Of a stretch of DNA of 32,000 nucleotides, positions 1,441-10,631 are shown piece after piece; position 1 is the stretch's first letter, and every line of letters starts with the position of its first letter. The stretch covers positions 150,001 to 182,000 of the forward strand of contig NZ_BCZP01000007.1 in assembly GCF_001598795.1 (NCBI RefSeq), read 5' to 3'. Below the pieces are notes generated by a model. The model did no database searches, was not told the DNA's origin, and saw only the letters and a list, made by a program, of their open reading frames with translations. A program made the translations under genes and the position numbers. This stretch comes from Delftia acidovorans NBRC 14950 (lineage in GTDB: Bacteria > Pseudomonadota > Gammaproteobacteria > Burkholderiales > Burkholderiaceae_C).

Positions 1441-4299
1441 TCAATCCACGATCAATTTGCTGTTGTTCAGCAGCTGCGTGATGATCTGCTCGTCCGTGGT
1501 GGCGCCGGAGTACAGCGCCTGCAGATTCACGCCTTCCAGGATGATCTGCTGTGTCTCGGCCGATGCCGAGTAGCCTGCACCCACCGCATGGGAGTCTGCA
1601 CCGAAGCCGCCCGTGTGGCTGACATGGACCCATGTATCGCCTCCCGTGATCTCGAAGTGCAGGTAGTTGGCCAGGTTGCCTGCGGCATTGCTGGGGCCTG
1701 CGGATTCACCCTGCAGCAGGTCGCGCAGGTCCAGTACATCACCGCCTGCGCCGTTGGTTCCCGCTGCCGCCGTGGAGAAGTTCTGGATTCGGTCCAAGGC
1801 CGGCGTTCCCGCCGCCCCCTGATCTCCCAGCGACCAGACAAAGACATCCACAAAGCTCTCGCCCGCATCGCCGCCTATCAACAGGTCGTCGCCGGAGCCT
1901 CCGATCAGCCGGTCCGTGCCCGATCCCGCGTTGAGGGTGTCGTTGCCGCTGCCGCCGATCAGCACATCGGAGCCCGAGCCCGCCGACAGGTTGTCGTCGC
2001 CAGCGCCCCCGAAAACGATGTTGTTTCCGCTGCCGGCGTTGATGGTGTTGGCGCCGTTGCCACCGGTGATGTATTCGTTGGCCGAGTTGCCCGTATGGTT
2101 GCCGCTCTCGGTCGTGGTGATATCCACGGTCGTATATGAGGCCTTGAGCGTGACCACGGTGGATGTCGATGCCGTGAAGCCGCCGCTGACCTCCGTCGCC
2201 GTGACCTGGACCGTGAGATGCGTGGCGTTCGTGGTGTAGCTGCCAGGCAGATTCAGGATGAGATTGGGCAGGTCGGCCTCGGTGAATTGCCAGACACCAC
2301 CACCCAGGTTCGTACCCGCATTGAAGGACAGATTGGTGGGCAGTCCACTGATCCTGATCGACAGGGTTTCCGAGCCATCCGTATCCACCAGCTTCGTGGT
2401 TATCGGAAACCTGACGCTGGTCCCGCCTGTCCCGTGTGCGATGGCCAGCAGGGACTTCAGGACAACGACCGAAGGAGCGCTGGCCGCCCCAACCGACAGA
2501 TTGACCGTGCCAATACTGGTGCCGCCGCGTCCATCGCTGACGTCGTAGAGAAAGCTGGCCGGTCCTTCGTAGCCTGCAGCGGGCGTGAACAGCACCCCGC
2601 CCGCCTGCAATGCAAGGCTGCCATTGACCGGCGAATGAGCCAAGGTGATGGTCAGGCTGTCGCCGTCGGCATCCGTGTCATTGGCCAGCAGCGTGGCAAA
2701 GCTGATGCTCAGCGGGATGTCCGTGGCAACCATCAATTGATCTGCCACGGCAACCGGTGCATCGTTCACGGGAGTGACCGTGATGGAAACGGTGGCGATG
2801 TTTCCCATGGCCTGCCCGTCGCTGGCACGGTAGGTGAAGCTATCGGAAGTCGTCTCGCTGCCGTTGTGGATATAGGTGAAGGTGCCATTGCCGTTCAGCG
2901 TCAGGGACCCGTTCGCCGGACCCGTCACCAGCACCGCGACGAGCGGATTGCCGTCAGGGTCCGTGTCGTTGGCCAGCACGCTGGTTGCACCGCTGGCAAG
3001 GACCGTGGCCACAGCGCCCTCGGCCACCACTATCGCATCGGAGACAGACACTGGCGGTTGATTGCCGGAGGGCGCAGCAGCAACCGTCACCGACACACTG
3101 GCCGTGGCAGAACCGCCCCTGCCGTCGCCAATGGTGTAGGTGAAGCTGTCGCTGCCGGTGAAGTTGGCGTTCGGCGTGTAGACCGGATTGCCCGTGACGG
3201 CATCCACGACCACGGAACCGTGGGTGCCCTGGGTGATGCCGTAAACGGTCAGGCTGTCCCCATCCGCATCGCTGTCGTTCCCGCGCACGGCGATGGTGAC
3301 GGATGTATCGGCATCGGTGGTGGCCGTATCGTTGCCGGCCACGGGCACCCGGTTCACGAAAACACTCAGCGTGCTGGACGCGCCGGTCTGCACGGTGTAG
3401 CCGATGGCCAGCGGATGGCCGCCGCTGTAGTTCGCATCCGCCTGGAAAGTGAAGCTGCCGTCTGCCTGCAGCGCGAAGGTCCCGCGCCCCGCCACGTTCC
3501 GGGAGCTGCCGGCCGCCACGGTCTGGCCTTCATAGGTGAAGCTGGCGACCACGAGCGCCCCATCGGCATCGGAATCGTTGGACAGCACATTGCCCGTGCG
3601 CTGCCCGGCCGTGTCCACCTGCACGCTGTCGGGCGCAAGCACGCTGGCATGGCTGCCGCGCACGGTTTCCGCCGCCGCGGCGCACAGTTGCGCCACGTCC
3701 ACCCAGCATGAATCGCCCGCCTCCAGCGCGGCGCCGACTGCGCAGGCGCTGCCGGGACGCGGGGCCGTCGATGGAATCGCGCCCGGCACGCCCAGCGGAA
3801 AGCAGGTGTTCCACACAGGGTCCGTGATGCCGGTGACTTTCAGCCGCACCGACGTCTGGTTGCGATAGACCACGGGCAGGAATCCCTGCGGTGCGCCATC
3901 GGCACCCAGCGCTGTCGCCTGCACGGGAACGGTGAGCGTCTCGCCTGCGGCCTGGTTGAAGGCTTCCTGCAATTCCTGAATCTGGGCCTGCACCCGCTCG
4001 CCCCAGACCGCCGTGGCTGCGGTCACGACAACAGCACCGCCCATGGCCCAGGCACGCAGGCCGACCAGGGAGATCCGCCCTTTTTGTACACCCCGCACAA
4101 GGTAGGCCCCCAAGGCCAACGCCAGCAGCGCAAGAGCGCCAGGGTGGTCCACAGGAATCGCCGCCGGCGCCACGGCTGCCAGCGGTGCCACCGTGATGCT
4201 CTGGGCCTGGGCGGCCGGTAAGGCACAGGCCACGGCCAAGGCGCCCAACGCCTGTGCGAGCCCCGTGCCACGGGCAAGGAATTGGAAAAGTTGCAGCAT
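1441..4299 (-). CDS. T1SS-secreted RTX/cadherin-like repeat adhesin
   Basis: Four Asp-rich cadherin/VCBS-like modules (NDSDADGALVV, NDSDADGDSLTV, NDTDPDGNPLV, NDTDADGDSLTI; VNDAPVAV). A nonapeptide Ca-binding run (GGNGANTINAGSGNNIVFGGAGDDNLSAGSGSDVLIGGSGNDTLNAGSGTDRLIGGSGDDLLIGG). The C-terminus matches the VC_A0849-type T1SS target domain (...DVLDLRDLLQGE...NYLHFE...QLLNNSKLIVD). Start placed at ATG 4299; the ORF track's 4398 start is a TTG. Confidence 0.85.
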   Translation of the reverse strand: MLQLFQFLARGTGLAQALGALAVACALPAAQAQSITVAPLAAVAPAAIPVDHPGALALLALALGAYLVRGVQKGRISLVGLRAWAMGGAVVVTAATAVWGERVQAQIQELQEAFNQAAGETLTVPVQATALGADGAPQGFLPVVYRNQTSVRLKVTGITDPVWNTCFPLGVPGAIPSTAPRPGSACAVGAALEAGDSCWVDVAQLCAAAAETVRGSHASVLAPDSVQVDTAGQRTGNVLSNDSDADGALVVASFTYEGQTVAAGSSRNVAGRGTFALQADGSFTFQADANYSGGHPLAIGYTVQTGASSTLSVFVNRVPVAGNDTATTDADTSVTIAVRGNDSDADGDSLTVYGITQGTHGSVVVDAVTGNPVYTPNANFTGSDSFTYTIGDGRGGSATASVSVTVAAAPSGNQPPVSVSDAIVVAEGAVATVLASGATSVLANDTDPDGNPLVAVLVTGPANGSLTLNGNGTFTYIHNGSETTSDSFTYRASDGQAMGNIATVSITVTPVNDAPVAVADQLMVATDIPLSISFATLLANDTDADGDSLTITLAHSPVNGSLALQAGGVLFTPAAGYEGPASFLYDVSDGRGGTSIGTVNLSVGAASAPSVVVLKSLLAIAHGTGGTSVRFPITTKLVDTDGSETLSIRISGLPTNLSFNAGTNLGGGVWQFTEADLPNLILNLPGSYTTNATHLTVQVTATEVSGGFTASTSTVVTLKASYTTVDITTTESGNHTGNSANEYITGGNGANTINAGSGNNIVFGGAGDDNLSAGSGSDVLIGGSGNDTLNAGSGTDRLIGGSGDDLLIGGDAGESFVDVFVWSLGDQGAAGTPALDRIQNFSTAAAGTNGAGGDVLDLRDLLQGESAGPSNAAGNLANYLHFEITGGDTWVHVSHTGGFGADSHAVGAGYSASAETQQIILEGVNLQALYSGATTDEQIITQLLNNSKLIVD

Positions 4300-4337
4300 G
4301 GGTCTGGCCTGGAAGAAAAGATCCGAAGATCCGAACA

Positions 4338-4357
4338 GGCGGGGAACGCTCCCCGCC
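4338..4357 (-). terminator. GC-rich hairpin between the rhs remnant and the adhesin start (candidate terminator)
   Basis: Perfect 8-bp stem GGCGGGGA/TCCCCGCC with a 4-nt loop. On the minus strand it is followed by a T-rich but interrupted tract (tgttcggatcttcggatcttttcttcc). Confidence 0.35.
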
Positions 4358-4488
4358 GCTGCCTTCAGGCAGGCCACAAATGACTGCTCTGCTGACAATT
4401 TCTTACTCTAGACGATGGTCTGCGCAGCGCATATCCCTGAAAGCAGGTAATTGGCAGCTGAGAAGCCCTCCTGGCACACGCCACTTGA

Positions 4489-4925
4489 AGGCCGTTGGCG
4501 TATTGCGTGGGTTGAACAGCCAGGGGGCGGTGTTGCCGGCCAGCACGGCTGCGTCGGTGTCGCTGTGCAGGGTCTGGGTGTTGTCTGTCCCGCGAATCTC
4601 GAAGCTGCGGCGGGCATGCAGGCCGTCCCACTGGATACGTTCATAGGCCAGCGGGCTGTAGGTGGCCGCGCTGCCTTGCGTGGCCTTGTTCAGGCCCGCG
4701 TTGCTGAGGAATTTTCTGCGCGCAGGTTGCCTGCGTTGTAGCGGTACTGGGCCAGGGTCTGCGCACCGCTGCCGTGGTCCTGGTCCACGCGGATGAGCTG
4801 GTCCTGGGCGTTCCAATGGTAGCTGGTGGTGGAGGTGACGGCACCCTTTGTCTGCGCCTGCGTGAGGCGGTTGCCGTTGGCGTCGTAGGTGTAGCTGGCG
4901 CTGGCTGCGCCGCTGATCTCGGTGC
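4489..4925 (-). repeat. rhs core direct repeat, copy C (degraded)
   Basis: Aligns by eye to 8497-8925 with scattered mismatches and two 1-nt deletions. Confidence 0.8.
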
Positions 4926-5045
4926 TGCTGGTTTCGCCTGCCCCGCTCTGGCTGGTGCGGCGATTGAGGGCGTCGTACTGGATGGTGGTGCTGCTGCCAC
5001 CCGGGGCAGAGGCAGTGACTGCGGTATCGCCGCATCTCGTTCACT
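4489..5045 (-). pseudogene. Rhs/YD-repeat core remnant (orphan cassette 3), frameshifted, with no C-terminal tip
   Basis: It translates as ...TASAPGGSSTTIQYDALNRRTSQSG...SYTYDANGNRLTQAQTKGAVTSTTSYHWNAQDQLIRVDQDHGSGAQTLAQYRYNAGNLRAE. Relative to the copy near 8720 it has a 1-nt deletion (ttttct versus tttttct near 4710). A second 1-nt deletion lies near 4510 (gtgggttg versus gtgcggttg). Homology stops abruptly at about 4489. Confidence 0.8.
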
Positions 5046-5060
5046 GAATATCAGTGCATC

Positions 5061-5525
5061 CTAGCCATGAATTTCAATTAATTCCTTCAAATATTTTTCC
5101 ATAGCAACGAAATGTATGGCTGTTGCAAAAGGTCGCTTTGGATCCTGTTTTGAGTTTTCTCTAATTAAAGAGGGAATCTCCTCGTTAAGCCAGAGTTCTC
5201 GATGTGGATATATAGCATATTTTTCCCCTTCAATATCCTCAATTAACATGTGGCCACGCCAAGCATCCTCATATAGCCTATTTGAAATCAGAGAGATGAA
5301 TATAATAGCCTCATCCCCAATAGACAATTGGGCATCCCCCCACGTCCCAGGAGAGCAGACAAAATCAATTTCCCTTCCCAAAGCAGATAAATCAATTCCT
5401 TTCTGCGTCGATAATATCTCCACCACTATCGCCTTCAATACTTGAGGCTCTGGGGAACTGATAACACGAGCCACTATGACATCATGCTTTTTTACCTTAC
5501 TTACCAAAAAATCTTGATTTCTCAT
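5061..5525 (-). CDS. Candidate immunity protein for the orphan Rhs tip CT2 (no recognised family)
   Basis: 154-aa AT-rich ORF directly downstream of the CT2 toxin. Its ATG (5525-5523) overlaps the toxin's TGA (5524-5522) as ATGA. An alternative ATG lies at 5537. The protein is small and acidic, as expected for a polymorphic-toxin immunity gene. Confidence 0.6.
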   Translation of the reverse strand: MRNQDFLVSKVKKHDVIVARVISSPEPQVLKAIVVEILSTQKGIDLSALGREIDFVCSPGTWGDAQLSIGDEAIIFISLISNRLYEDAWRGHMLIEDIEGEKYAIYPHRELWLNEEIPSLIRENSKQDPKRPFATAIHFVAMEKYLKELIEIHG

Positions 5526-7198
5526 TCCGGCTTCCATGGCATACCCAATTTCTCCAATAATGGCATGTAGTTTCTCATATTACCCGTCGCCTCTGGTATA
5601 GGTATACCAATACTCATTGGAAATGTCGCACAATTGAATGTGCATGAATTTTTCCCGGGGAAACCATACATAGCATTATTCATCGGACTATTTATTCCGA
5701 TTGCATTATGCGCTGATTTTATCATATCAAATTGCTCATGAGACATAGGAATCCTATGTTCTATTACCGCCCGAGGAACACCACCTCGGCTAGCAGCGCT
5801 GCTGTTAGCAATTGATCGGAAAATAGCCGTGTCATCCGTGATAACTCCGGGATAACTTGCACCATTTCTTAGCAACTGCACCGCTTCAAAAGCAGAGATG
5901 CCATCAGGCATTTTTGGCCCAAATCCATAAATGGTTTTTCCTCCATCAAATGAATAACCAACATGCCCGGTTACAACATAAGGATGAGGCGCATCTACAG
6001 CCATCAAATCTCTAGTAGAGCCTGCACCTCGAAAGCCAAAAAGGCTGACTGTTGGAACCTCTGTGTTTGAGGGCACTTCGCTTGCTGAGCTGTGTGTCCG
6101 AGCATCATTCCTCACAGCCTGAGCAGTCTTGCTCACCGACTTCCATTCCCCAGCCGCCCGAAGCCTTGGCCCTTCGGCTACCAGTGTCGGCGTTGTGTCG
6201 CTCACCTCTGGCCGGACTTTTGCCGCTTCTATGGTCGGCGTCTTCGCCGCCAGCACAGGCTCCGTGGTTTGGAGTTCCTTTGCCAGTGCTCTTGCTACCG
6301 TCCTCCGATCCAGGCTGCTTTTGATGGCATTTGCCAGAGGTACCGATCCGGCCCCCAACGCACCACCCACGGCCGCCGAAGTTGCCGTTTGCTGCAGGTC
6401 ATAGCCGCTCTGGATGCCACCACCCATGTGCGCCGCCTGTGTGGCAGCATCGCCTGCCGCGCCGCTGCTGGCTCCTACAACAGCAGCCACTGCTACTCGT
6501 CCTGCGGTGCTGCTGGCTGCGCCCACCAAGGCACCTCCAGCAGCTCCAGTAGCCACGTTCAGTCCCGCCACGGCCAGGCCGCCGCCCACGCCTGCACCCC
6601 AATACTGGCCTTGGCTGATCTTGCCTTCGTCGTAGGCATCTCGCATGGGGTCGTGCACGCTGGCAAAGCCCAGCGTGGAGGCCACGTATAGGCCTTTGCC
6701 CAGGGCGTAGAGGGCGCAGGTGAAGCGGCCACATCCTTCTGCAGCGTTGTCGATCAGGGTGGAGGTCGACTGCTCCCCATTCGGATCCACATACCGATAC
6801 GGGTTGTACCTGCCGTACTGGTAAGCACCCCAGGTAATCGGCAGCCTCGCCTCACCCTCCACCGGGTCACGGCTGATGAACTGGCCGCTGGCCGGGTCGT
6901 AGTAGCGTGCCCTGGCGTACAGCAGGCCCGTTTCCGGGTCTGCGTAGTAGCTTCCGAAGCTGTGGCCGTTGCTCTTGAGGCCTACGCCCGCGTTGCCGCT
7001 GGCTTTGCTGTCCACGCTGCCGTAGGCGCCGTACAGCAGCAGGCTTTCGGCCTTGGCCGTGCCGCCTTCGCTGGCAACGGTGGCCACCAGGTTGCCGTTG
7101 CTGTCCGCATGCAGTTGCGTGGTGCTGCTGGTGCTGCCCAGGCCGTTGGCGTATTGCGTGCGGTTGAACAGCCAGGGGGCGGTGTTGCCAGCCAGCAC
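5522..7198 (-). CDS. Orphan Rhs cassette 2: RHS repeat-associated core end plus a 416-aa polymorphic C-terminal tip (CT2)
   Basis: The core end (...YYDPASGQFISRDPVEGEARLPITWGAYQYGRYNPYRYVDPNGE) carries the PxxxxDPxG motif that marks the Rhs core/tip boundary at 6773. The frame is open up to a TAA near 7412, and the first possible start in it is GTG 7198. Diverged, frameshifted YD-repeat homology continues to about 7505, a few nt below the previous cassette's stop. Confidence 0.75.
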   Translation of the reverse strand: MLAGNTAPWLFNRTQYANGLGSTSSTTQLHADSNGNLVATVASEGGTAKAESLLLYGAYGSVDSKASGNAGVGLKSNGHSFGSYYADPETGLLYARARYYDPASGQFISRDPVEGEARLPITWGAYQYGRYNPYRYVDPNGEQSTSTLIDNAAEGCGRFTCALYALGKGLYVASTLGFASVHDPMRDAYDEGKISQGQYWGAGVGGGLAVAGLNVATGAAGGALVGAASSTAGRVAVAAVVGASSGAAGDAATQAAHMGGGIQSGYDLQQTATSAAVGGALGAGSVPLANAIKSSLDRRTVARALAKELQTTEPVLAAKTPTIEAAKVRPEVSDTTPTLVAEGPRLRAAGEWKSVSKTAQAVRNDARTHSSASEVPSNTEVPTVSLFGFRGAGSTRDLMAVDAPHPYVVTGHVGYSFDGGKTIYGFGPKMPDGISAFEAVQLLRNGASYPGVITDDTAIFRSIANSSAASRGGVPRAVIEHRIPMSHEQFDMIKSAHNAIGINSPMNNAMYGFPGKNSCTFNCATFPMSIGIPIPEATGNMRNYMPLLEKLGMPWKPE

Positions 7199-7400
7199 GG
7201 CTGCGTCGGTGTCGCTGTGCAGGGTCTGGGTGTTGTCTGTCCCGCGAATCTCGAAGCTGCGGCGGGCGTGCAGTCCATCCCACTGGATGCGCTCATACGC
7301 CAGCGGGCTGTAGGTGGCCGTGCGGCCTTGCGTGGCTTTGTTCAGGCCCGCGTTGCTGAGGAATTTTTCTGCACGCAGGTTGCCTGCGTTGTAGCGGTAT
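6773..7400 (-). repeat. rhs core direct repeat, copy B
   Basis: Aligns to 8130-8757 at a constant offset of 1357. About 6867-7265 appears identical, because the off-frame ORFs 6867..7283 and 8224..8640 give identical peptides apart from the first residues. Confidence 0.9.
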
Positions 7401-7517: not shown

Positions 7518-7937
7518 CTACTTCCTCAAAGGTAGCAAATCTCGACCATCAATTTCATAAATATCGGTACTGAAAACAACTGAGAAATTTTCAGAATTTA
7601 TGTCAACAACAGCCTTAAAAATAACAAAAACCTCATTTGACGCATTAGATATAATATAACGCTTCGCACCAGTATCAGGATCGGTTTTGACGAGAATATA
7701 TCCACCATTCCTCTCTTCCCAAGAGTCTCCCGCGCCTAGTACTGACGAAGGAATTCCTGTAAAACAAAATTCCCAAACTCCTTCACTTTTTTTGCAACCT
7801 CCATAGTTAGTAGAAGTTCTAAACCAAGAAGGCCAAGTCTCTTTTGGATAAATTCTCAGAAAACCTTCAAAGAACAGTTGAGAAGCCTTATCAAATTCAC
7901 TAGTCAAATTATCTTTCTTCACTCTAATTTCCCCCAT
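7518..7937 (-). CDS. Possible immunity-type ORF (139 aa), in frame with and embedded in the end of cassette 1
   Basis: An AT-rich block of about 470 nt (about 7518-7985) is the size of the 465-nt immunity gene of cassette 2. There is an internal ATG at 7937. No separate ORF fits between the cassette 1 stop (7518) and the start of cassette 2 homology (about 7505). No clear Shine-Dalgarno sequence. Confidence 0.25.
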   Translation of the reverse strand: MGEIRVKKDNLTSEFDKASQLFFEGFLRIYPKETWPSWFRTSTNYGGCKKSEGVWEFCFTGIPSSVLGAGDSWEERNGGYILVKTDPDTGAKRYIISNASNEVFVIFKAVVDINSENFSVVFSTDIYEIDGRDLLPLRK

Positions 7938-9686
7938 AGATTCTTGACCATTGCTTACGCATAATTTCAGACTGAATGATTGCGTCGTCTGATGGAAGCT
8001 GACCGAACGTATGATGCCCGCCGTCACCCCATATAGCGCTACGCTGCTGCCCCATCTGTTGAAGGTCAGCACAGCGAACCCTATGGCATAACCAGCAATC
8101 TTGGTCCCGCAGTCACGCCAGCGGTCGCACTCTCCATTGGGGTCGGTATACCGATACGGGTTGTACCTGCCGTACTGGTACGCACCCCAGGTGATCGGAA
8201 GCCTCGCCTCTCCCTCCACCGGGTCACGGCTGATGAACTGGCCGCTGGCCGGGTCGTAGTAGCGTGCCCTGGCGTACAGCAGGCCCGTTTCCGGGTCTGC
8301 GTAGTAGCTTCCGAAGCTGTGGCCGTTGCTCTTGAGGCCTACGCCCGCGTTGCCGCTGGCTTTGCTGTCCACGCTGCCGTAGGCGCCGTACAGCAGCAGG
8401 CTTTCGGCCTTGGCCGTGCCGCCTTCGCTGGCAACGGTGGCCACCAGGTTGCCGTTGCTGTCCGCATGCAGTTGCGTGGTGCTGCTGGTGCTGCCCAGGC
8501 CGTTGGCGTATTGCGTGCGGTTGAACAGCCAGGGGGCGGTGTTGCCAGCCAGCACGGCTGCGTCGGTGTCGCTGTGCAGGGTCTGGGTGTTGTCTGTCCC
8601 GCGAATCTCGAAGCTGCGGCGGGCATGCAGGCCGTCCCACTGGATGCGCTCATAGGCAAGCGGGCTGTAGGTGGCCGCACTGCCTTGCGTGGCCTTGTTC
8701 AGGCCCGCGTTGCTGAGGAATTTTTCTGCGCGCAGGTTGCCTGCGTTGTAGCGGTACTGGGCCAGGGTCTGCGCACCGCTGCCTTGGTCCTGGTCCACGC
8801 GGATGAGCTGGTCCTGGGCGTTCCAGTGGTAGCTGGTGGTGGAGGTGACGGCACCCTTGGTCTGCGCCTGCGTGAGGCGGTTGCCGTTGGCGTCGTAGGT
8901 GTAGCTGGTGCTGGCCGCGCCGCTGACCTGCACGAGCTGGTCACGGCCGTTGTAGCGGTAGTCCAGCGTGCCTTCAGGTGCGGAGGCACCGGTTTCCAGG
9001 CCGTTGGTGCTGCCGACAGGCGGACCCGTGGCACCGACGGTGGCGACCACGTTCTGCTGAATGCGCCGGCCTCCCGCATCCAGTTGCCAGGTGGTGCGGC
9101 GCTCGGGCGTGGTGTGGCTGGTCAGGCGGTCCTGGGCGTCGTAGGTCCAGCTTTCCACGCGGGTGCGGTTGTGGCTGGCGCTGTTGCTGCCTCCGGGCAG
9201 ATGGGCGCTTAGGGCCGCGCTGCGATTGGCGGCAGACAGGGATTCCGTTCTGCTGCTGCCGACGCGGTTGCCGTTGACGTCGTAGGTGTAGGCGGTGTCC
9301 AGGATGGTGTTGCCTGCGCCTGCCGTGGCCTGGGTGCTGCTGGTTTCGCCAGCCACGCGACCGGCCTTGTCGTAGCGGGTGCTGGTGCTGCTGCCATCGG
9401 GGTGCAGCAACTGGGTGACACGGCTGGATTTGTCGTAGCTGATGCGGGTGGTGCCGCCTGCCCCGCTCTGGCTGGTGCGGCGGTTCAGGGCGTCGTACTC
9501 GATGGTGGTGACGCTGCCGCCCGGGGCGGATGCCGTGGCGGCCGTGGTGCCGATGCGGTTGCCCTGGGGGTCGTAGCTGTGCGTGAGGCTGTTGCCCCAG
9601 GCGTCGGTGGCCTTGACGGGCCGGTTGAAGGCGTCGTAAGTGGTGGTTTCGGTACGCGTGCCCTGGCTGTCTGCCTGTGCCTGTGC
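7518..9686 (-). CDS. 5'-truncated Rhs/YD-repeat protein fragment (cassette 1) with a 203-aa C-terminal tip (CT1)
   Basis: YD repeats (TTYDAFNRPVKATDAWGNSLTHSYDPQGNRIG, TIEYDALNRRT, ISYDKSSRVTQLLHPDGSSTSTRYDKAGRV, AYTYDVNGNRV, WTYDAQDRL, SYTYDANGNRLTQ). Core end ...YNPYRYTDPNGE at 8130. Only about 520 aa of core are present, which from memory is far shorter than full-length Rhs proteins. The ORF-track extension from 9687 to 10544 is antisense to a porin fragment. Confidence 0.8.
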   Translation of the reverse strand, partial: AQAQADSQGTRTETTTYDAFNRPVKATDAWGNSLTHSYDPQGNRIGTTAATASAPGGSVTTIEYDALNRRTSQSGAGGTTRISYDKSSRVTQLLHPDGSSTSTRYDKAGRVAGETSSTQATAGAGNTILDTAYTYDVNGNRVGSSRTESLSAANRSAALSAHLPGGSNSASHNRTRVESWTYDAQDRLTSHTTPERRTTWQLDAGGRRIQQNVVATVGATGPPVGSTNGLETGASAPEGTLDYRYNGRDQLVQVSGAASTSYTYDANGNRLTQAQTKGAVTSTTSYHWNAQDQLIRVDQDQGSGAQTLAQYRYNAGNLRAEKFLSNAGLNKATQGSAATYSPLAYERIQWDGLHARRSFEIRGTDNTQTLHSDTDAAVLAGNTAPWLFNRTQYANGLGSTSSTTQLHADSNGNLVATVASEGGTAKAESLLLYGAYGSVDSKASGNAGVGLKSNGHSFGSYYADPETGLLYARARYYDPASGQFISRDPVEGEARLPITWGAYQYGRYNPYRYTDPNGECDRWRDCGTKIAGYAIGFAVLTFNRWGSSVALYGVTAGIIRSVSFHQTTQSFSLKLCVSNGQESMGEIRVKKDNLTSEFDKASQLFFEGFLRIYPKETWPSWFRTSTNYGGCKKSEGVWEFCFTGIPSSVLGAGDSWEERNGGYILVKTDPDTGAKRYIISNASNEVFVIFKAVVDINSENFSVVFSTDIYEIDGRDLLPLRK
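8130..8757 (-). repeat. rhs core direct repeat, copy A
   Basis: See copy B. It encodes YRYNAGNLRAEKFLSNAGLNKATQG...RYNPYRY(T/V)DPNGE in both copies. Confidence 0.9.
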
Positions 9687-10403
9687 CTGGGCGGCAGCTG
9701 GGGCCAGCTCACGGCCGGGCGCCACTACACCACGCTGCACACCTCGCTGGCCAGCTATGCGCTCACCGGCCTGATCTGGGGCAACGCGGCCAACTATTTC
9801 CGCGACGGCACGGTGCTGCGCGCCAGCAATTCGCTGCGCTACCAGTCGCCGAACATGGGCGGCTTCACGGTGCGCGGCATGTATTCGTTCGGCGAGGCGG
9901 CGGGCTCCAGCGTGGCCAGCCTGTACGGCGGCTCCGTGGACTATGCGGCCGGGCCCTGGGCACTGGGTGCATCGTGGATGCAGCGGCGCACCACGGCCGT
10001 GAATACCGACCGCTATGCGCTGCTGGGCGCGGCCTATGACTTCGGCGTGGCGCGCGCCGCGCTGCTGCTGTCCACGCGGCGCGACGACCTGCCTGCCGCC
10101 ACCAGCGGCCAGGGCCGTTTCTACGAGGCCAGCGTGACCGTGCCCATGGGCATGGCGGGGCAGTGGCTGCTGTCCTATGGTGCCTACCATGGACAGGCTC
10201 GCGCCCAGAGCGATGCGCGTGCGCTGAGCGTGCGCTACGACCACTCGCTGTCCAAGCGCACCAAGCTCTATGCGGGCGTGGGCCGCATCCACAACGAGGC
10301 GGGTGCCGCCTTCACCATCAACACCGCCAGCAATGCGGGGCCGGTGGTCCAGGCAGGCAGCCGGCCCAGCTCGGTGGTGCTGGGCATATCGCACGCGTTC
10401 TGA
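9687..10403 (+). pseudogene. Gram-negative porin, 5'-truncated (about 238 C-terminal codons retained)
   Basis: LGGSWGQLTAGR aligns with LGGNWGSLTMGR of the intact porin at 29885..31033. The C-terminus ...SKRTKLYAGVGRIHNE...VVLGISHAF* parallels ...SKRTAVYTQLGHIRND...INVGIRHMF*. There is no signal peptide, no N-terminal strands and no start codon. Confidence 0.8.
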
Positions 10404-10411
10404 TTGCCGGG

Positions 10412-10434
10412 GGCAGGCGCGGCCAGCGCCTGCC
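10412..10434 (+). terminator. Hairpin just after the porin stop
   Basis: Perfect 9-bp stem GGCAGGCGC/GCGCCTGCC with a 5-nt loop, 9 nt after the TGA. No following T-tract, so its function is uncertain. Confidence 0.35.
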
Positions 10435-10631
10435 ATGCCGACAGGACGGCCCGGCTGGAGTCTGGCTGTTGTAACAACCCCATGAAATCCAGGGAATATT
10501 CGCCTATTTGAATGGATTTTTCCAATCAGAAAAAGTCTGTCCAATCAGCGAATTAGGCGATTTGCAAGAGAGAAAGTTTCGCAAAAAGACAAGTGCCTGC
10601 GTGATCCGGCAAGAAAAATAAAATCCAAATG

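Follow-up and report, generated by a model that had tools for sequence, protein, structure and literature searches.

The stretch of DNA analysed here, hereafter the window, comprises 32,000 nucleotides of Delftia acidovorans NBRC 14950 (NCBI RefSeq assembly GCF_001598795.1, contig NZ_BCZP01000007.1, positions 150,001 to 182,000, forward strand) and contains several fragments of Rhs genes, one of which, the open reading frame (ORF) 5522..7198 on the minus strand, ends in a 416-residue tip followed directly by a small second ORF. The question that this locus raises is whether the tip is a toxin and, if so, what kind of enzyme it would be, in which compartment of a target cell it would act, and how the producer would be protected from it. 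Our overall explanation, to which we assign a probability of roughly 0.6, is that tip and neighbouring ORF form an orphan Rhs toxin-immunity cassette whose toxin would be a thiol enzyme of the permuted-papain type acting in the cytoplasm.

Anatomy and family of the Rhs tip

Translation of ORF 5522..7198 gave a protein of 558 amino acids, in which residues 56-141 matched the Rhs-associated core (TIGR03696, E = 1.9e-15) and the last 416 residues (5525..6772) followed the end of the core at DPNGE, a motif with which the core of the upstream Rhs fragment also ends. A first-pass annotation of this DNA had divided the tip after DPNGE into three parts, a Cys-containing start, a Gly/Ala-rich zipper, and a linker leading into a low-GC domain, and all three were present. 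The features on which the argument rests are listed here, with residue numbers referring to the 558-residue protein.

6773..7367, minus strand: 3' end of the Rhs core and 5' homology arm of the orphan module (TIGR03696; repeated core end)
6773..6787, minus strand: DPNGE, Rhs C-terminal boundary and predicted autoproteolysis motif (translation)
6599..6772, minus strand: start of the tip, residues 143-200, beginning QSTSTLIDNAAEGCGRFTCALYALGKGLYVAS, with C156 and C161 (translation)
6329..6598, minus strand: Gly/Ala-rich glycine-zipper segment, residues 201-290, 90 amino acids (composition, motifs, hydropathy)
6053..6328, minus strand: polar linker, residues 291-382, disordered in the structural model, with the module junction at its end (model confidence, GC content)
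5525..6052, minus strand: predicted toxin domain, residues 383-558, 176 amino acids, of an unnamed polymorphic-toxin family (profile search, AlphaFold2)
5963..5965, minus strand: H412, predicted general base, in the motif TGHVGYSFDGGKTIYGFGP (98% conserved; second residue of model strand 72-77)
5831..5833, minus strand: D456, in the motif ITDDT, which may orient the His (98% conserved; end of model strand 110-116)
5666..5668, minus strand: Y511, in the motif YGFP, candidate third active-site residue (98% conserved; at a strand end; aligned by hhalign with the Tyr of DESI1 and DESI2)
5630..5635, minus strand: N522-C523, in the motif NCATF, with C523 as predicted nucleophile (99% and 98% conserved; ahead of model helix 187-190)
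5061..5525, minus strand: putative cognate immunity gene, 154 amino acids, soluble product (its ATG at 5525 overlaps the toxin stop as ATGA; synteny)

The N-terminal part of the 558-residue protein has a near-identical counterpart annotated in Delftia acidovorans (P0283), and the start segment of the tip (residues 143-200) is present in that protein as well. The zipper segment consists of 24% Gly and 29% Ala (53% Gly plus Ala), with the glycine-zipper motif GxxxGxxxG at positions 197 and 218 and additional [GAS]xxxGxxx[GAS] motifs, and its Kyte-Doolittle hydropathy over 19-residue windows (KD19) reached a maximum of 1.57. Residues 1-39 of the AlphaFold2 (AF2) model had predicted local distance difference test (pLDDT) values below 50. 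Base composition divided the tip sharply, with a GC fraction of 0.636 for the start, zipper and linker together, 0.438 for the toxin domain and 0.399 for ORF 5061..5525, against 0.658 for the whole window, and the drop from ~0.6 to ~0.43 fell around 6050-6100.

The number of relatives of the toxin domain depended on the search. A word-indexed search recovered only 11, from Ralstonia, Pseudomonas and metagenomes, and an exhaustive profile search returned 370 representative clusters (50% identity) at E ≤ 1e-3, 56 of them at E ≤ 1e-30. The domain was C-terminal in 141 of 150 proteins and was preceded by the eCIS_core domain of extracellular contractile injection systems (eCIS; n = 7), by PAAR (n = 6) or by RHS repeats (n = 3), with prePAAR, Tox-PAAR-like, PT-TG and PT-VENN among the further partners. 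In Massilia eburnea (L002) it ends a prePAAR effector within an operon of VgrG, an Eag (DcrB) chaperone, the effector and the immunity gene, and in Ralstonia solanacearum (L007) it ends a CdiA protein of contact-dependent growth inhibition (CDI) that carries two-partner secretion (TPS) and haemagglutinin-repeat regions. That CdiA (L007 873-9543) is split into a 661-residue ORF with the TPS domain and a 2351-residue ORF, with no coding sequence in the PLSDB gene table, and probably reflects either a frameshifted pseudogene or a gap in the annotation. In some very large relatives (P0017, P0094 and P0021) the domain occurs together with Annexin repeats, a Zeta-toxin or a PLD domain, which hints at multi-toxin proteins and possibly at members directed against eukaryotes.

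No Pfam or NCBIfam model matched over the toxin domain in the window protein or in 121 relatives (Pfam thresholds of E ≤ 1 for the window protein and 59 members and E ≤ 0.01 for 62 further members), the profile built from 59 members was likewise empty, and searches of PDB sequences with tip and domain returned no matching chain, in agreement with the earlier opinion that the tip belonged to no named toxin family. Two hits to single members, Lnb_N (DUF4105) at E 0.019 and TGL at E 0.052, were set aside as chance level given 59 queries, and a literature search on the locus tags of the relatives found nothing. Judged by its sequence relatives, the toxin domain is a real and widespread, unnamed family within a well-known kind of system, that of Rhs and other polymorphic toxins.

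The candidate active site and the question of fold

Conservation, counted over 133 divergent domain sequences, was highest at G411-H412 (98%), D456 (98%), Y511 (98%), N522 (99%) and C523 (98%), with G451 and G539 also among the best-conserved positions (98-99%). The two motifs that the first-pass annotation had singled out, TGHVGYSFDGGKTIYGF and CTFNCATF, were both found, with 111 residues between H412 and C523, and they turned out to contain the most conserved sites of the family, the His and the second Cys being invariant at that level, beyond what chance would give; C519, the first Cys of CTFNCATF, is not conserved. The invariant Y511 lies 12 residues before the Cys. We regard it as probable, with some assurance, that the domain is a Cys-His thiol enzyme of one fold or another.

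Which fold it would be is a less certain matter. The annotation had proposed a circularly permuted NlpC/P60 domain, and the order of residues and the predicted secondary structure both speak for that part of the claim. The invariant His stands N-terminal to the invariant Cys, as in permuted NlpC/P60 domains, and in the AF2 model (12-sequence alignment; mean pLDDT 81, above 90 over most of residues 40-219) DSSP assigned H412 (H73 of the model) to hairpin strand 72-77 and placed C523 (C184) three residues before the short helix 187-190, i.e., a His on a β-hairpin strand and a Cys at the N-terminus of a helix, which is likewise the permuted NlpC/P60 arrangement. A model of the distant member P0010 had a pLDDT of 45 and was not used. 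Foldseek, the check that had been suggested for this claim, ranked human CLN5 first among 350,542 PDB chains, a permuted papain enzyme as predicted, but at E 1.1 and a query TM-score (TMq) of 0.24, so that no match was significant, and the same was true of every other score obtained for the proposed fold. CLN5, a relative of PPPDE/DeSI, is a thioesterase of circularly permuted papain fold with a His-Tyr-Cys centre (PMC9012467), and automated structure comparison is known to fail on papain-like folds (PMC10318531).

The family shares with PPPDE/DeSI (Peptidase C97) and CLN5 the order of His before Cys and an invariant Tyr shortly before an Asn/Asp-Cys pair, and its His-to-Cys spacing of 111 residues is close to the 114 of CLN5. 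Aligned by hhalign with a DESI1 profile, the C-terminal half of the domain was covered, including the Tyr and Asn-Cys (P 0.027, non-significant; the profile was shallow, with an effective number of sequences, Neff, of 2.3, the search with human DESI1 having returned only close vertebrate orthologues), and with DESI2 the His, Tyr and Asn-Cys were colinear (P 0.19, non-significant); N522-C523 fell on NCNTF and NCNHF of DESI1 and DESI2. CLN5 and PLA2G16 were also tried as single-sequence partners and were rejected because the alignments were meaningless (PLA2G16, P 0.53). Unlike PPPDE/DeSI and CLN5, the toxin domain has an extra α-β-α insert that carries the invariant D456, stands in a bacterial toxin context beside an immunity protein, and gave no significant sequence or structure score against them. 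The His hairpin also resembles that of TseH (GHAGVILINGETGVTRYYEYG here and GHVGYSFDGGKTIYGFG in TseH), and the resemblance as a whole is suggestive of PPPDE, CLN5 and TseH more than of LRAT. On balance we lean, by a modest degree, towards a permuted papain (NlpC/P60) fold for the toxin domain.

The same model is open to a second interpretation, in which the Cys-His enzyme has a new or otherwise distinct fold that is unrelated to papain, one option being an α/β-sandwich thiol peptidase or transglutaminase as understood for Tox-HDC or clan CD; it would then probably cleave or deamidate a cytoplasmic protein. The alternation of β and α elements in the model suits this interpretation, as do the lack of any significant PDB fold match and the nature of the only significant structural neighbour, an uncharacterised giant-virus protein. 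His also precedes Cys in Tox-HDC and clan CD, and a conserved H, D and C are the signature of Tox-HDC (PF15656), which has been reported on Rhs proteins of β- and γ-proteobacteria (PMC3482391). However, the Tox-HDC model matched none of 121 members at the thresholds given above, Tox-HDC has SGxH where this family has TGH (TGHVG), and Tox-HDC proteins are usually found without immunity genes. An identity with Tox-HDC was rejected on the failure of both the model and the SGxH motif. In addition, no caspase, gingipain or flavodoxin-like structure was among the Foldseek matches, and the invariant Tyr and the Asn-Cys pair suit PPPDE better. A non-papain fold of this kind is in our estimation unlikely, with perhaps one chance in a handful.

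Immunity, entry and compartment of action

ORF 5061..5525 had been proposed as the immunity gene of the tip, and this assignment was borne out by synteny. Homologues with 40-49% identity stand directly after the toxin in four loci, those of Dyella (L001), Massilia (L002), a betaproteobacterial metagenome-assembled genome (L004) and Ralstonia (L007), and since the delivery domains differ among the four loci, it is the toxin domain, not the carrier, with which the immunity gene is paired. Neither a signal peptide nor a transmembrane (TM) helix was found in the four aligned immunity homologues (window, L001, L002 and L007), whose maximal KD19 was ≤1.2, and the immunity protein had no Pfam or NCBIfam match. 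Behind the immunity gene, a small tetratricopeptide-repeat (TPR) protein with 54-68% identity is encoded at L001 7004-7432, L002 6926-7462 and L004 6844-7233; in Ralstonia it is reduced to a 15-residue remnant (L007 10091-10135), and it is absent from the window. The ancestral cassette may have included this TPR protein as its third component. At L004 6001-6751 the toxin match ends after ~96 domain residues and the immunity and TPR genes are intact, which looks like a cassette that kept its immunity after deletion of the toxin.

The zipper ahead of the toxin domain has a far narrower distribution, residues 143-300 having six homologues only. One of these, the metagenome protein P0282, has the same zipper and linker but diverges inside the linker and continues into a PT-HINT/Hint_2 domain in place of the toxin domain, and the zipper is also found before another payload besides HINT. 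Because of the architecture of P0282 and the GC break at ~6050-6100, we place the cassette junction at the end of the linker and treat the zipper as a separate module, which from these alignments is a pre-toxin zipper/linker module reused with another processing domain and payload.

Hydrophobic segments at this position are not confined to the window protein. All three prePAAR members examined (3/3) have TM segments with KD19 >2.0 directly upstream of the toxin domain, eight of nine Rhs members have a spacer of 75-162 residues between DPxG and the domain with KD19 1.26-2.13, and only 26 of 86 other members reach a KD19 of 1.2. The transmembrane domains (TMDs) of prePAAR effectors have been implicated in crossing the target membrane (PMC7773334). 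Since hydrophobic segments recur in these type VI relatives and TMDs are implicated in crossing, we read the zipper as a candidate module for membrane insertion and translocation. Close homologues of the toxin domain (P0014, P0016, P0023 and that of Massilia, L002) share the TMD-PAAR-TMD-toxin architecture of Tse6-type prePAAR effectors (PMC7773334) and an Eag/DcrB chaperone, and in them, as in the Tse6 type, a hydrophobic segment lies immediately ahead of the toxin. Unlike in the Tse6 type, the hydrophobic segment in the window lies inside an Rhs tip after DPNGE and is Gly/Ala-rich, not a classical TM helix pair. A CdiA tip, StbD-CT, is likewise laid out as an entry domain, a flexible linker and a thiol enzyme, there a C39 cysteine peptidase (bioRxiv 10.64898/2026.05.07.723447), and acts in the cytoplasm; it differs in that C39 is a canonical papain with Cys before His, its entry domain binds YajC and its target is GyrB/ParE.

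The composition of the same segment admits another explanation, namely that the zipper is itself the toxin, or a second toxin, forming a membrane-depolarising pore as Tse5-CT, CdzC/D and EsxX do, and that the C-terminal domain is accessory. Glycine-zipper tips are described as pore-formers in Rhs (Tse5) and LXG toxins, and the 53% Gly plus Ala and the two GxxxGxxxG motifs of the segment would suit such a pore. The genes around it do not: there is no membrane immunity gene, the sole immunity gene encodes a soluble protein, and the one partner gene that is conserved accompanies the C-terminal domain in loci without the zipper. Moreover, the segment is not the terminal payload, being followed here by a linker and an enzyme domain and in P0282 by HINT, and the 416-residue tip matched no PDB chain by sequence, a set that would have included the solved structure of Tse5. 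Of the explanations considered here, a zipper pore is the least likely.

For the toxin domain itself, the soluble immunity protein, the carriage of the domain by CdiA and the reading of the zipper as a translocation module together suggest a cytoplasmic target, and action in the cytoplasm is in our view likely. The first-pass annotation had predicted an amidase or a phospholipase/acyltransferase-type toxin, and a periplasmic enzyme of that sort is disfavoured by an immunity protein with neither signal peptide nor TM helix and by the position of the domain, which follows TMD2 in prePAAR effectors and is the last domain of a CdiA.

A periplasmic toxin of this kind, a permuted NlpC/P60 enzyme serving as a cell-wall amidase or as a phospholipase/acyltransferase like Tox-Act1, TseH or LRAT, nevertheless has known precedents. 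The permuted NlpC/P60 toxins Tox-Act1 and TseH are established type VI secretion system (T6SS) effectors, effectors of this kind that cleave peptidoglycan and phosphatidylethanolamine exist, and TseH-like tips occur on Rhs proteins of Delftia and Ralstonia (PMC12994826). By predicted chemistry Tox-Act1 and TseH are the nearest characterised toxins to the family. They are likewise Rhs- or PAAR-borne and delivered by the T6SS, they have a catalytic His followed by a Cys ~110 residues later (108 in Tox-Act1, from H43 to C151, versus 111 here), and the hairpin around the His is TseH-like. Against a periplasmic site stand the four immunity homologues, which lack signal peptide and TM helix, whereas the product of the ORF behind the TseH-like tip of Ralstonia contains a strong TM helix (KD19 2.44) and Imm-Act1 contains two TM helices (PMC12994826), the periplasmic Tox-Act1 and TseH being paired with membrane-anchored immunity. 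The domain is also carried by prePAAR/TMD effectors and CdiA, which are routes to the cytoplasm, and it has no detectable sequence similarity to the TseH-like tip. Tox-Act1 and TseH match Pfam DUF4105, DUF6695 or Peptidase_C97, whereas the family here gave only the Lnb_N hit noted above, in 1 of 59 members. Membership of the Tox-Act1/TseH clade (PMC12994826) was rejected, the Ralstonia TseH-like Rhs tip matching TseH (6v98) and not the toxin-domain family in hhalign and phmmer comparisons. We consider a periplasm-acting toxin very unlikely, at around one chance in ten.

The orphan locus and its meaning

The 3' end of the Rhs core occurs in the window in three copies that are 95-98% identical (4510-5032, 6773-7367 and 8130-8929). 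The copy before the 416-residue tip is preceded by in-frame stops upstream of 7367, its earliest possible start is a GTG at 7198, and it has no N-terminal Rhs body; homology begins at ~7367, and neither an N-terminal delivery domain nor a complete YD shell was found. Because of the in-frame stops just upstream and the missing N-terminal body, 6773..7367, the tip and the immunity gene together are an orphan, promoter-less module without its own start or N-terminus. Two NCBI assemblies annotate a gene for the identical 558-residue protein, with the surrounding layout unchanged.

Orphan rhs-CT/rhsI modules are reportedly found downstream of rhs genes in E. coli and Salmonella (Poole 2011; Koskiniemi 2014). 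The module in the window resembles them in having a core-homology arm, a variable tip and an immunity gene, no start of its own, and core ends in tandem. Unlike in those orphans, even the 'main' rhs gene is here a 5'-truncated fragment fused to a porin remnant. In this upstream ORF (7518..10544, minus strand) the Rhs repeats start at ~9650 and directly adjoin what is left of a Porin_4 gene, its C-terminal two-thirds, on the plus strand (~9690-10403; junction near 9650-9700), which points to both genes having been disrupted by an old rearrangement or inversion; two assemblies share this layout. Its own tip, CT1 (7521..8129, minus strand), has 203 residues, a GC fraction of 0.28-0.47 and no family match, and no separate immunity ORF lies behind it. 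The second half of CT1 (MGEIRVKKDNL...) may represent an immunity gene that was joined on in frame once most of the toxin had been lost. The third core-end remnant (4403..5044, minus strand; homology 4510-5032) ends immediately behind LAGNTAPWLFN, with neither a tip nor an immunity gene. Adjoining the Rhs array, 1441..4398 (minus strand) encodes a 985-residue protein that combines cadherin-like/Big_9 repeats with RTX-type GGxGxD repeats at its C-terminus and is probably an adhesin secreted by the type I route. The window contains no T6SS genes and no vgrG or PAAR gene, and its remainder consists of ordinary chromosomal genes.

The overall explanation that we favour, the orphan cassette with a cytoplasm-acting permuted-papain toxin, would run as follows. 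The tip would be expressed only after recombination of the 0.6-kb core-homology arm with a full-length rhs gene, whereupon the 416-residue tip would be enclosed within the Rhs shell, which would sever it at DPNGE. Following delivery by the type VI route, the hydrophobic Gly/Ala-rich segment would lodge in the inner membrane of the target and would thereby carry the flexible linker and C-terminal domain into the cytoplasm. There the 176-residue domain would work as a thiol enzyme with C523 as nucleophile and H412 as base, assisted by N522, Y511 and D456, in a fold most likely to be a circularly permuted papain (NlpC/P60) of the PPPDE/CLN5/TseH type, and would cleave or transfer a thioester, ester or amide/isopeptide acyl bond on a cytoplasmic or inner-leaflet substrate. 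In the cytoplasm of the producer, the soluble 154-residue protein encoded at 5061..5525 would neutralise the toxin.

Several observations weigh against this explanation. Toxicity, cleavage and compartment are predictions, and neither fold nor profile comparison gave a significant match (Foldseek E 1.1, TM-score 0.24; hhalign P 0.027-0.19). HMMER detected no similarity to DESI, PLA2G16/LRAT or the TseH-like tip, hhalign left the catalytic residues unaligned with those of CLN5, and strands and helices alternate in the model to a greater extent than in a minimal papain core. The KD19 of 1.57 in the zipper is below that of classical TM helices. Finally, because T6SS genes are missing from the window and the upstream Rhs ORF is itself 5'-truncated, the cassette may never be expressed in this strain.

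New polymorphic toxin domains turn up often, and the copy in the window is a silent orphan. The toxins of Rhs, CdiA, PAAR and eCIS proteins are nevertheless a main source of new enzymatic activities, and here a domain of 370 clusters has a confidently predicted structure and an obvious active site, yet neither a name nor a solved relative. We give even odds to the broader proposition that the domain founds an unnamed clade of cytoplasm-acting toxins, of at least 370 clusters across T6SS, CDI and eCIS, which would be either a new permuted-papain (PPPDE/CLN5-like) branch of thiol acyl-hydrolases whose centre is His-Asp-Tyr-AsnCys or else a new fold, accompanied by a new family of soluble immunity proteins and, in Rhs proteins, by a zipper module for self-translocation after DPxG. 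The tip also lends itself to asking, in a simple setting, how the payload of an Rhs shell may cross the inner membrane once it is released. If the domain is indeed PPPDE/CLN5-like and cytoplasmic, it would extend the permuted NlpC/P60 toxins beyond the periplasmic phospholipases just described and would make the chemistry of CLN5 and DeSI accessible in a tractable bacterial system.

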